In this document: piece after piece, positions 9,001-12,000 of the stretch
Numbering within the stretch: position 1 is the first letter of the stretch
How the letters are laid out: every line of letters starts with the position of its first letter
Assembly (NCBI GenBank): GCA_004292595.1
Contig: RDXM01000082.1
Coordinates: 287-64,286 of the forward strand
DNA: 64,000 bases
Source: Candidatus Kapaibacterium sp.
Lineage (GTDB): Bacteria > Bacteroidota > Ignavibacteria > Kapaibacteriales > UBA4661
Direction of reading: 5' to 3'
Made by a program: the position numbers

Positions 9001-12000
9001 ACAGCAACTCGGCACAAGCTCTCGGAAGCCCACCGAATGCTGATTGTAGGCTGCCGCACCGAACACACCAAAGCGAATATACGGATTTGGCAGTTCGTAG
9101 CTTTGCACGGAAGCCGCGCTATTACTGGTTTGTGTGTTATTTTGCTGCGTTGCTCCACTGCCGCTTCGTGCTGGCAAGCTCGCGCCGCCTTCTTGCGCAA
9201 AACCGCTCGAAGACGCAATAAGCGAGAAAAGAAGTGCTATACAATAAAAACGAGTATTCATGCTGTTGTGAGAGTGTTTTTTAGATGTTCTTTTTTGAAT
9301 ATCATTAAAAATATCAGATAGTAGCACAGACATTCTTGTCTGTGTTGTTGCCCGCATCTTTTGTCCAATACTCACAGACAAGAATGTCTGTGCCACTGAA
9401 GCCTGATTTTATCGGACTACTCAATCAGCACAATCTGCCGTTGCTGCACTTCGCGGTTTGCCCGCACAATGAGCATGTACGCGCCTTGTGGCAGATTTTT
9501 CATGGGAAGCGAAAGGTGAATATCGCCCGCATTTTGGACGCTTGCAAATTCAGTCAGGACGGTTTGTCCCATCGCATTGACAAGCGTAATTTCAAGTGCT
9601 GTTGCCGATTCTGTGCGGATAAATGTTTCTGCCACGCCGCGCACGGGATTTGGTGCAATCACGAGCGACGTAAGCACTGCTGCGGGCTTCAGGCGAAGCA
9701 ACCGCGCCGAGCCGTCAATCACGCACGTTTCGACCGTAAGCGCGGTGTCGCGGAGAATTTTGCGAATGTTTACGTCGCCAATCGCATTGCCGCCGGGCGC
9801 GTCCGACCACGTAAATTCGGCAATGCGCAAGGATGTAATGAGCGTATCGGCAAGCAACGCCTCGCCCGTAAATTCCGCCAAAACGATGTTGTTTCCTTGT
9901 TGAATACCGCTCGCTGGAACAGGCACATTTTGCAGGCGAATCCGTGTGCGCGTGAGTGTGCGCTGCGCGGCGGGAAGATTGCTGGGCGAAATGACATTGC
10001 GCGGAAAAAGAACATCGGGATTGCCAATGGCAATATCCGCCGAGAACTGACGCGCTCTGCCCGCATAGCGAGCCGCATCCAAGCCGCTTGTACGCCTCAC
10101 CACTAATTGCACCGTCACCGTATCGCCAACATCAGGACGCACCTTTGTTCCCGTCGTACCGCCCGTGAAAGGCTTGAATTGGAGCGCGATTTCGGTTTCC
10201 GCGCACGGCTCGCCAATGCTCACTTGTCCCGAAGGAACGCAGCGCACACCATTGCCATTCAAAAGTGCGTAGAGCGTATCGCCAGAAGCTGCTCGGAAGC
10301 GCATCACGCCTTGATGAAAGACGGTATCAACAGGACGGAATGTGGCAATGAAATTTGCGGGAATACGCGCCGTTACGGGTGTGCGACGAAAGGCGGGCGA
10401 GACCTGCTCCAAAAGGCTGAATGCCGCTCTGGGTAAGCCCTGCGGAGCAAACACATCTGCGCCGATAACGTCAATCGCTTGTGCGGACATCGTTGTGATT
10501 TGCACACCGCGCCGCTCGGTTTCGCCAACAATCGTATTGCCGAACTCAAGCCGCGTGGGAACAAGGTTCACGCGCTGTTGTGCGCTGGGCGGCGTGATAA
10601 AATAGAGCGGAATTGACCATGTGCTTGCCGTTACGCTGTTTGTTGCGCGAACTGTCCATGCGTAGGCGGTGTTTGGTTGTAGTTGGAATGCGGGTTGCAG
10701 CGTGGTTGCTTGCATCACATTTCCCGAAAAAAGTGGCATTGCAAAGCCGCTTGCGGTGGAAAAACCGTTGTCCACGCGGGCAATTTGCGCTGTGTAGCCT
10801 GTCGGCACAGAAAGGAAGCCGACGGGAAGCCACGAAAGCGGCGGTGCCGCACCAATGCTCACGCGCCCGTCTGGTGCCGTTGCCACAGCAAGCAGCACCG
10901 GCGGCGGCAGCACAGGCGTAACGCGAAAGCCGCGTATAATCGTGCTGACGGCGCGGTCGCAGGGACCAAAGTTTATGCGCACGGTGTCGGTGATTTCGCC
11001 GTCGCGCGAGGGTTCGATGGTGAGCGTCAAATCAAGGAATTGTCCCGCTTGTACGGTTTGCCCCATGCCAGAAGCCGCACGAACACTGCCCAGCGAACTG
11101 CGTACATCCGTAATAGTGAGCGGTGTGCCGTCAGGGCTGGTGTTGGTGAAGCGGAGTGTTTGCGTGGTGGAAAGGCGAAAAAAGGTATTGACGGTATCAA
11201 AGCGAATGCTTTGCGGCACACTCGCTTGCGGGAGAAGAATGCCGATTTGAATGGATTGTGTGAGTTCTACTCCCATGCCATTGCGGTCGGTAACGGACAA
11301 GGTGTAGCGCGTGGGCTGGCTTGGCGAAATAAACGCCCGAATCACGCCATTTGCATCAATGCTGCTGGAATCTACCGAGCCGCCTCTATCATTCGTCCAA
11401 ACAACGCGATACGGCGGAACACCGCTTGTGAGAACGCTTGTGAGCTGTGTGCGGACGCTGGGGCAGACTACCATTTGCGGGGTCGTGATGGCAGAAAGTC
11501 CAAACGGCACGACCGATAAACGACTTTCGGCAAATTGCCCGTCGTCGTTGGTCAGAACAAGGCGCAGTGTGGCTTCGGAGCTAACGAGTGCGCGAGGAAC
11601 ATTCACCACCACCTCGCGGGAACTATTTTCGCCGACGCGCTGAAGCGTAACGCCGCCAAGCCGTACGGTGAGCGGCACAACAGGCTCTGGCTCGACGTTT
11701 GCCGTTGTGAAAAATTCTGCGCCACGAATGATTAGTTGAAAATCAGCATTGCCAACGCTGACCGTTGGCGGGGAAATTTCCGTGATGCGTGGCGGCAACG
11801 CTCGCACTTTGAAGGGAAAATCGTGGAATTGCCCGTTGGTATTGGTAACGCGAACAAACTTTCGTCCCGCCACCGCCAAGCCTGCTGCTGGAACGCTTGC
11901 TGTGAGGAATTGTCGCCCCAAACGTTGTGTTATTTGTGCTGGAACGCCCGCTACTGCGACGCTTGCAGCCGAATCAAATGCTTGTCCGGACACAAGAAGG

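Follow-up and report, generated by a model that had tools for sequence, protein, structure and literature searches.

Three inverted-repeat elements in a Candidatus Kapaibacterium genome are very probably REPINs dispersed by a RAYT

A 64,000-nucleotide stretch of the genome of a Candidatus Kapaibacterium sp. (contig RDXM01000082.1 of assembly GCA_004292595.1, positions 287 to 64,286; hereafter the window) contains three short and closely similar inverted-repeat elements. The question raised by this locus is what kind of element they are and which enzyme may have spread them. A preliminary description, made from the sequence alone, had proposed a family of miniature inverted-repeat transposable elements (MITEs), with structured RNA, a terminator module or a protein-binding site as further possibilities. 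We conclude that the three elements are very probably REPINs, that is, head-outward doublets of a 25-nt repetitive extragenic palindromic (REP) sequence, dispersed by a REP-associated tyrosine transposase (RAYT). The earlier idea of a mobile element was right in that there is a related transposase and that copies lie scattered through the window and a sister genome, but the class is that of REPINs and RAYTs. The assignment to MITEs was rejected because there are no target-site duplications (TSDs), because the arms, which are hairpins with a GT[AG]G head, are strand-specific and because the partner enzyme is of the HUH/Y1 and not of the DDE type.

The three elements are 76-78 bp long, and the number expected by chance in the window is 0. 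A search with the 24-nt arm GTGGCACAGACATTCTTGTCTGTG, allowing up to 3 mismatches, gave six matches in the window, at the places where the three copies had been reported, and 0 across 100 shuffles. A looser hairpin pattern, CACAGACA-N4-TGTCTGTG, also with up to 3 mismatches, recovered the identical six arms and no solo REP, corresponding to 3 doublets and 0 singlets per 64 kb. The inverted repeat is 25 nt in length (AGTGGCAC...GTGCCACT) and the bounds of the elements, which we call A, B and C, are therefore 9320-9397, 32688-32765 and 45915-45992. The inverted repeats had been described as perfect and 24 bp long; they are real, but they comprise 25 nt and in copy A they agree at 24 of 25 positions, the left arm having GTAG. 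Each arm has a 5' (A)GT[G/A]G head, a perfect 8-bp stem (CACAGACA/TGTCTGTG) and a 4-nt TTCT loop, as expected from the remark that the termini are themselves palindromic. The foot is GTGG in five of the six arms and GTAG in the left arm of A. Within each element the paired arms have their heads outward, around a spacer that had been given as 28-29 bp and is in fact 28 nt in all three copies. The arms of A occupy 9320-9344 (plus strand, with an AGTAG head followed by CACAGACA-TTCT-TGTCTGTG) and 9373-9397 (minus strand, with a GTGG head on that strand); they enclose the most diverged of the three spacers (9345-9372), which, as had been noticed, is inverted relative to those of B and C. Taking the canonical spacer orientation, A lies on the minus strand and B and C on the plus strand. 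In B the arms are at 32688-32712 (plus, an AGTGG head plus hairpin) and 32741-32765 (minus), around a spacer at 32713-32740 (AGTATTGGTGAGAGGTTCAGGCGACAAC, plus); in C they are at 45915-45939 (plus) and 45968-45992 (minus), around a spacer at 45940-45967 (plus). A single arm has a predicted fold of -7.6 kcal/mol. For an entire element, a single extended hairpin is predicted at -25 to -33 kcal/mol, which is 8-10 standard deviations lower than for shuffled sequences (A, -24.8 kcal/mol as single-stranded DNA, z -8.3; B, -30.8 kcal/mol, z -9.7; C, -33.3 kcal/mol, z -10.1).

An autonomous element with the same termini had been envisaged. There is none in the window, but a Y1/HUH gene bracketed by the repeat was found in relatives. 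A strict regular expression for the Y1-transposase motif had no match in 116 loci, and phmmer with an approximate IS200 TnpA sequence as query gave no significant match; a looser HUH plus Y...NP expression, applied to the fetched loci, returned two RAYT genes. In a metagenome-assembled genome (MAG) of the Ignavibacteria (locus L036, 1018-1461) a gene with HUH and Y...NP motifs encodes a 148-aa protein, and it has two direct copies of AGT[GA]GCACAGACATTCTTGTCTGTG upstream and the reverse complement downstream. Across loci L036, L118-L126 and L127-L128, from Ignavibacteria/Kapabacteria MAGs, AGT[AG]GCACAGACATTCYTGTCTGTG stands upstream of the RAYT gene and its reverse complement downstream, and four further orthologues, 65-74% identical, have the same inverted-REP bracket. 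The 148-aa protein matches Pfam Y1_Tnp (PF01797) at 6e-9 and exceeds the cut-off of NCBIfam NF047646, REP_Tyr_transpos (85.8 bits versus 80). Several of its homologues carry the JGI label "REP element-mobilizing transposase RayT". In 35 homologues H61 and H63 of the HUH motif and Y121 of the Y...NP motif are invariant, and the best solved relative of the RAYT profile is E. coli TnpA-REP (4er8, 3.6e-12), ahead of IS200/IS605 transposases. One RAYT orthologue, P0021 (L127 1201-1554, L128 569-922), is called at only 117 aa, and by eye the remaining conserved C-terminus (..YMFNNPIKAGI..) appears downstream in another frame; P0021 could be a frameshifted RAYT or the product of a sequencing error.

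Given this family membership, we considered whether the elements might be ordinary ends of IS200/IS605 insertion sequences, or palindrome-associated miniatures of them, moved by a multi-copy TnpA and not by a domesticated single-copy RAYT. Such elements would belong to the same HUH/Y1 superfamily, would also be recognised as hairpins and would leave no TSD, and the 148-aa protein does give a weak secondary match to NCBIfam transpos_IS200 (22 bits versus a cut-off of 55). However, it is the RAYT model and not the IS200 model that the protein passes, its nearest solved structure is TnpA-REP and it has the class-2 Y...NP signature (PMC6006769). Further, the gene is flanked by identical inverted REPs and not by distinct left and right ends, and in each of five lineages its chromosomal neighbours are a TPM_phosphatase gene and der. 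This fixed position suggests that the RAYT is single copy in the relatives, and we judge an ordinary IS200/IS605 origin to be very unlikely.

The REPIN-RAYT reading also draws on the flanks of RAYT genes in other lineages. A metagenome scan with the RAYT alignment yielded 80 loci, 77 of which had adequate flanks. Upstream flanks in 42 of these 77 and downstream flanks in 49 of 77 had a perfect hairpin, 7 bp or longer, whose GT[AG]G head pointed outward, against 0 and 1 among shuffled flanks; at 37 of the 77 loci both flanks had one. At 53 of 88 loci the two RAYT flanks had in common an exact inverted repeat, 14 nt or longer. The stems differ among lineages by paired, compensatory changes (CACAGACA, GGCAGACA, GACAGACA, GGCGGACA, CACAGGCT, CGCGGGCA and others); for example, the flanks read GTGG-GGCAGACA-TTCT-TGTCTGCC in Pirellulales and Tepidisphaeraceae and GTAG-GACAGACA-TTCC-TGTCTGTC in a Xenobia MAG. 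The stems are diverse yet self-complementary; it is the hairpin that has been kept and not a particular duplex sequence. Pairing of the RAYT-flanking repeats in a fixed register (4+8+4+8) is only 64%, because stem and loop lengths vary between lineages, and the support for the structure is thus a hairpin search with shuffled controls, not a covariation statistic.

REPINs count as non-autonomous elements of the IS200/IS605 (HUH, Y1) world, and a mechanism can be proposed for their spread. Each REP would fold to a hairpin on single-stranded DNA. The RAYT, encoded once elsewhere in the genome, would bind the hairpin together with the GT[AG]G foot of one strand, cleave, and rejoin the strand without duplicating the target site, and doublets would thereby be scattered into intergenic DNA. 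The single-strand cleavage chemistry assumed here is taken over by analogy from E. coli TnpA-REP (PMC3479197), and a RAYT presumably acted on the three copies in the window. Because the window contains no RAYT gene, we infer the link to an enzyme of this genome from the arrangement in its relatives.

The classical alternative is a MITE in the strict sense: a deletion derivative of a DDE insertion sequence, with terminal inverted repeats of 24-25 bp that are bound as double-stranded DNA, and with duplication of the target site. The perfect or near-perfect terminal repeats, the small size, the intergenic location and the presence of several copies would all be as expected. On the other hand, the proposed search for TSDs was negative: with each of four boundary choices, 0 of 18 elements of the 76-bp class were flanked by direct repeats of at least 4 nt, which fits HUH chemistry and speaks against a DDE-type MITE. 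In addition, the hairpins formed by the arms are strand-specific and have a GT[AG]G foot, co-variation in the stem maintains a hairpin and not a duplex binding site, and the sole gene found bracketed by these repeats is the one for the 148-aa HUH/Y1 protein. No DDE parent element was present in the loci examined, whole genomes not having been searched. An origin as a MITE is in our view most improbable.

Evidence bearing on dispersal of the REPINs comes from the sister genome bin62 (GCA_013298775.1), an Ignavibacteria MAG that has about 91% DNA identity to the window and is syntenic with it over 23183-35017. In the blocks examined, bin62 contains at least 15 other 76-bp doublets that share the spacer and show 80-95% identity to those of the window. 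REPIN B is found at the orthologous bin62 site (L136 9866-9946) with 3 differences in 78 bp, next to intergenic DNA with an 18-bp indel; the insertion is therefore older than the split between the two genomes. Also in bin62 is a REP dimer of a related subfamily with its heads inward (TT), about 115 bp in length (L136 11311-11454; CGCAAACAAGAGTGTCTGCGCTAC ... GTAGAGCAGACACTCTTGTCTGCC). It lies directly past the stop codon of the thymidine phosphorylase gene and has no TSD; the corresponding place in the window (34130-34160) is empty. When relatives of thymidine phosphorylase were checked for empty sites, only bin62 (L136) was syntenic, synteny being lost in those with an 89-90% identical enzyme (L134, L135). 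L134, with a 90% identical thymidine phosphorylase, has one solo double-footed REP in 18 kb (1655-1682; GTAGCACAGACACTTTTGTTTGTGCTAG), and L135 has 0 REPs in 20 kb, so that even close relatives are very unlike in REP density.

About half of the 76-bp REPINs of bin62 form the core of a composite palindrome of about 144 bp, in which the outer inverted repeat is GTACACGACAAAA/TTTTGTCGTGTAC and one side bears an asymmetric module, TGAAGCCTGATTTTACC (L056 5049-5192; L010 3157-3300; L136 15765-15906; L115; L056 6515-6680). Traces of this arrangement are present in the window. Copy A has the module TGAAGCCTGATTTTATC, which accompanies about half of the 76-bp REPINs in bin62, at 9397-9413 (plus strand), on the opposite side of the spacer. 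Copy C has a degenerate version of the composite. Its left outer module (GTACCATACAAAAAACAGT, 45896-45914, plus strand) aligns weakly to the bin62 outer repeat GTACACGACAAAA... and alone is not significant in the window; its right outer module (GAAGCCTAATTTT...TTCAAAGACTTTACCGTGCGG, 45993-46056, plus strand) gives a 110-bp match to L056 and contains a tandem duplication of ATTATTCAAA. The extra flanking sequence that had been said to be common to A and C was confirmed as the right flank TGAAGCCT[G/A]ATTTT. The outer module GATTTTGTCGTGTAC of bin62 occurs in the window no more often than expected by chance and is therefore not claimed for copies A and B. Since the REPIN can be the core of a composite of about 144 bp, the true mobile unit may exceed the doublet. 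Tandem multiplications are also seen in outer modules, with about 4 copies of ATTTATCATGTACA and 2 full copies plus a partial third of TTTTTGTCGTGTACTC (L010 about 3110-3180; L056 6631-6690), and a tandem TTAATGTCTGTGCTAC lies downstream of a RAYT gene (L118 1244-1290).

How widely does this REP occur? A scan with GGCACAGACA-N4-TGTCTGTG, using one genome per species, gave at least 116 stretches. The labelled sources among the matches listed were Thermoanaerobaculia and other Acidobacteriota (Terriglobia), several orders of Planctomycetota, Ignavibacteria/Kapaibacterium, Verrucomicrobiota, Lentisphaerae and Eisenbacteria, together with a few likely chance matches. Of 198 matches from other genomes, about 75% have GT as the two bases that precede GGCAC, against about 6% by chance, and in this GT-GGCAC orientation the loop is YTCY; the REP motif is strand-specific. 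The length of the doublet differs by lineage, from 76 bp in the window and bin62 to 59 bp in a Planctomycetaceae MAG, 61-64 bp in Gemmataceae MAGs and Gemmata algarum and about 100 bp in Thermoanaerobaculia, where double-foot palindromes GTGGCACAGACA....TGTCTGTGCCAC also occur. The pattern is present as well in 19 stretches from IMG/VR contigs classed as viral (L217-L235), mostly of 58-68% G+C and with GT feet; one of these, L225, matches a locus of the Kapaibacterium MAG Prado071 (L033), and the match takes in the REP together with about 60 nt downstream of it. A text search of the literature for the repeat string returned only papers on miR-214.

The near-identity of GT[AG]G-CACAGACA-YTCY-TGTCTGTG across phyla invites a further proposal, which we put forward tentatively and consider rather doubtful: that one REPIN-RAYT system has moved between phyla, or that the hairpin is under much stronger constraint than the enzyme, with a mobile unit perhaps larger than the doublet. 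Where RAYTs are seen, they are only about 50-55% identical between phyla; RAYTs 33-43% identical can bear CACAGAC stems, and some at 50-55% are without CACAGAC. These relationships seem to speak more for gradual divergence from a shared form than for a recent transfer. Movement between phyla, if true, would be at odds with the mainly vertical picture of these systems, and a stronger constraint on the hairpin, if true, might reflect, for example, a host function common to several phyla.

Several observations weigh against the conclusion that the window elements are REPINs served by a RAYT. There is no RAYT gene within the 64-kb window. The REPs that flank RAYT genes in relatives have GTAG feet, and five of the six window arms have GTGG. 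Exact copies of the 18 specified bases of the REP occur in at least 6 phyla, a spread that fits less easily with a strictly vertical REPIN-RAYT history. Finally, no insertion, excision or polymorphism was seen for any of the three copies, and the only orthologous comparison available for them, at site B, is a case of stable retention.

The positions of the elements relative to genes are relevant to a third alternative. As had been stated, all three copies are intergenic; each lies between co-directional genes, closer to the stop codon of the upstream gene. REPIN A is 20 nt past the stop of a 1412-aa TIG/Por_Secre_tail gene and 59 nt ahead of the true start (9261) of an OmpA-domain gene, both on the minus strand. 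REPIN B is between a DUF1232 gene (stop at 32648) and the thymidine phosphorylase gene (ATG at 32822), whose product has 100% identity to TAE31156.1 from a Candidatus Kapaibacterium sp. MAG. REPIN C is on the transcript of minus-strand genes, 80 nt past the stop codon (46072) of a 414-aa gene; beyond it come a separate terminator and then obg (start at 45791). This terminator, at 45829-45859 on the minus strand, is a canonical intrinsic one, with a 12-bp stem (GAAGCCGGATTA...TAATCCGGCTTC) followed by TTTTTCATCG; it lies between REPIN C and obg, which places REPIN C inside the 3' untranslated region of the 414-aa gene.

It might therefore be asked whether the elements are host cis-elements, either RNA hairpins at 3' ends that stabilise mRNA or attenuate read-through, or protein-binding palindromes, with any mobility irrelevant or extinct. 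The common placement between co-directional genes near the upstream stop would suit such a role, and so would the fact that REPIN B has been kept at its orthologous site, changed at 3 of 78 bp, next to intergenic DNA with indels; passages in PMC3479197 and PMC3733652 ascribe secondary roles of this kind to E. coli REPs. The sequence gives no support to the idea of a terminator module: the elements have no U-tail, copy C has a canonical terminator of its own further downstream, and a scan with the intrinsic terminator consensus called 0 of the 3 elements, its only site being 45859-45829 (minus strand), separate from REPIN C. The orientation relative to transcription also varies, C being opposite to A and B, and no Rfam family is represented. 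At the gathering score Rfam found only a tRNA; below threshold there were matches to mir-96 (29 bits, cut-off 65) and mir-16 (24 bits, cut-off 36.5), which we dismissed as the generic matches given by long hairpins to miRNA precursors. A host cis-element would leave the association with RAYT unexplained, and we think it quite unlikely that this is the whole explanation. A role at the RNA level as a secondary effect is compatible with the REPIN explanation, and the elements may affect the host in this way, for example by stabilising mRNA 3' ends. Other candidates were tried and dropped. A sigma-54 promoter (TGGCAC-N5-TT) lacks the -12 GC, and the motif is symmetric on both strands. Integron attC sites carry a GTTRRRY core; CRISPR and attC were set aside in view of the irregular spacing and of ends without this core.

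The practical importance of the elements lies chiefly in corrupted gene calls and broken short-read assemblies. That they create spurious starts of open reading frames (ORFs) had been recognised, and it is borne out here. The ORF 7111-9396 (minus strand) begins MAQTFLSVSIG... and has exactly 45 extra codons, the number given earlier, before the signal-peptide start MNTRFYCIALLF of a protein in which the Pfam OmpA domain is present; small false ORFs arise as well. Peptides encoded by REPs are now present in public protein sets. The RAYT protein P0069 starts with MVAQTFLSV, the translation of GTGGCACAGACATTCCTGTCTGTG, and the RAYT protein P0020 ends with repeated ..QTGMSAPP..; these REP-encoded extensions are gene-calling artefacts of the same kind as the ORFs in the window. 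As for assemblies, the only other public contig found to carry the obg of this organism (L117, from Logan SRR7244341) corresponds to window 42769-45940 and ends within the left arm of REPIN C, as would fit a repeat that breaks short-read assembly.

The window contains other repeats. A second small repeat, a perfect 20-nt palindrome CAAGGCAGCATGCTGCCTTG for which the chance expectation is 0, is present at 6395-6414 and 63676-63695 and looks intergenic; about 100 nt from the second copy there is a related hairpin, TTTGGAGCAAGGCAGGATAATTCCTTGCTCCAAA (63568-63601). Between 59887 and 62372 there is a coding tandem repeat with a period of 126 nt, whose unit TGGGATGT...GGCAAAGAA is WD40-like by eye, and another coding array of GCAGAAGCCGAAGCAAAA type with 24-nt phasing.

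Comparison with known systems places these elements beside REPINs. Correia elements and other DDE-type bacterial MITEs have in common with them that they are small, intergenic and multi-copy, that they have terminal inverted repeats and that they are able to create or disrupt gene starts. Correia elements and DDE-type MITEs are derived from DDE insertion sequences and have TSDs, for example TA in the case of Correia. The elements described here differ in having no TSDs and an HUH/Y1 partner enzyme.

There is a likeness to the GTAG-tagged REPs surveyed by Di Nocera et al. in 2013 (PMC3733652), whose HH dimers also have their heads outside, a conserved spacer and stems of 6-9 bp. In that survey GTGG is a tolerated variant of the foot, the GTAG-20 family of Opitutus terrae is GTGG-footed, and REP families extend into the PVC (Planctomycetes, Verrucomicrobia, Chlamydiae) superphylum, including Planctomycetes. 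Some of the families are nested in longer palindromic flanks, like the bin62 composite, and there are TT dimers, like that at L136 11311-11454. Ignavibacteria and Kapabacteria were not covered, and the likeness is one of description, not of family consensus sequences. The classification of TnpA-REP proteins by Quentin et al. in 2018 (PMC6006769) offers further parallels in the class-2 Y...NP signature and in flanks of GT[AG]G hairpins that resemble REPtrons. GT[AG]G is the canonical foot there, and GTGG-enriched and double-foot REPs are described, the latter matching the GTGGCACAGACA....TGTCTGTGCCAC palindromes of Thermoanaerobaculia.

With the E. coli system of REPs, bacterial interspersed mosaic elements (BIMEs) and TnpA-REP (4er8; Messing et al. 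2012, PMC3479197), the window elements share the 5' GT[AG]G at the foot of the hairpin, and the associated protein shares the HUH motif and the conserved catalytic tyrosine. E. coli REPs have longer, bulged stems, whereas here a perfect 8-bp duplex carries a pyrimidine-rich loop of 4 nt. Recognition by TnpA-REP involves both the hairpin and its foot, and the dinucleotide that is cleaved pairs with bases 3-4 of the foot (PMC3479197). By analogy, a GTGG foot would predict CC and not CT as the cleavage dinucleotide, if the pairing rule for A3/G4 holds. The naturally co-varying pairs of hairpin and enzyme seen among lineages may provide a compact set for studying how HUH proteins read hairpin DNA.

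There is a close correspondence with the REPINs and RAYTs of Pseudomonas fluorescens SBW25 (Bertels and Rainey 2011, PMC3116915; PMC5581495). In both cases short REPs form an inverted doublet around a spacer of conserved length and one long hairpin is predicted; doublets outnumber singlets, dispersal is extragenic and there is no TSD; and the REP flanks a Y1 transposase gene, which is single-copy in SBW25 and probably so in the relatives in which, and not in the window, it is seen here. The differences are that the present elements belong to Kapabacteria/Ignavibacteriota and not to Gammaproteobacteria, that the REP sequence is another one with a foot that is mostly GTGG, that the doublet measures 76-78 bp, of which 28 nt are spacer, and that excision intermediates were not seen here. 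As a whole, the comparison suggests that a well-studied partnership of REPINs and RAYTs, mostly known from Proteobacteria, now extends to the Kapabacteria.

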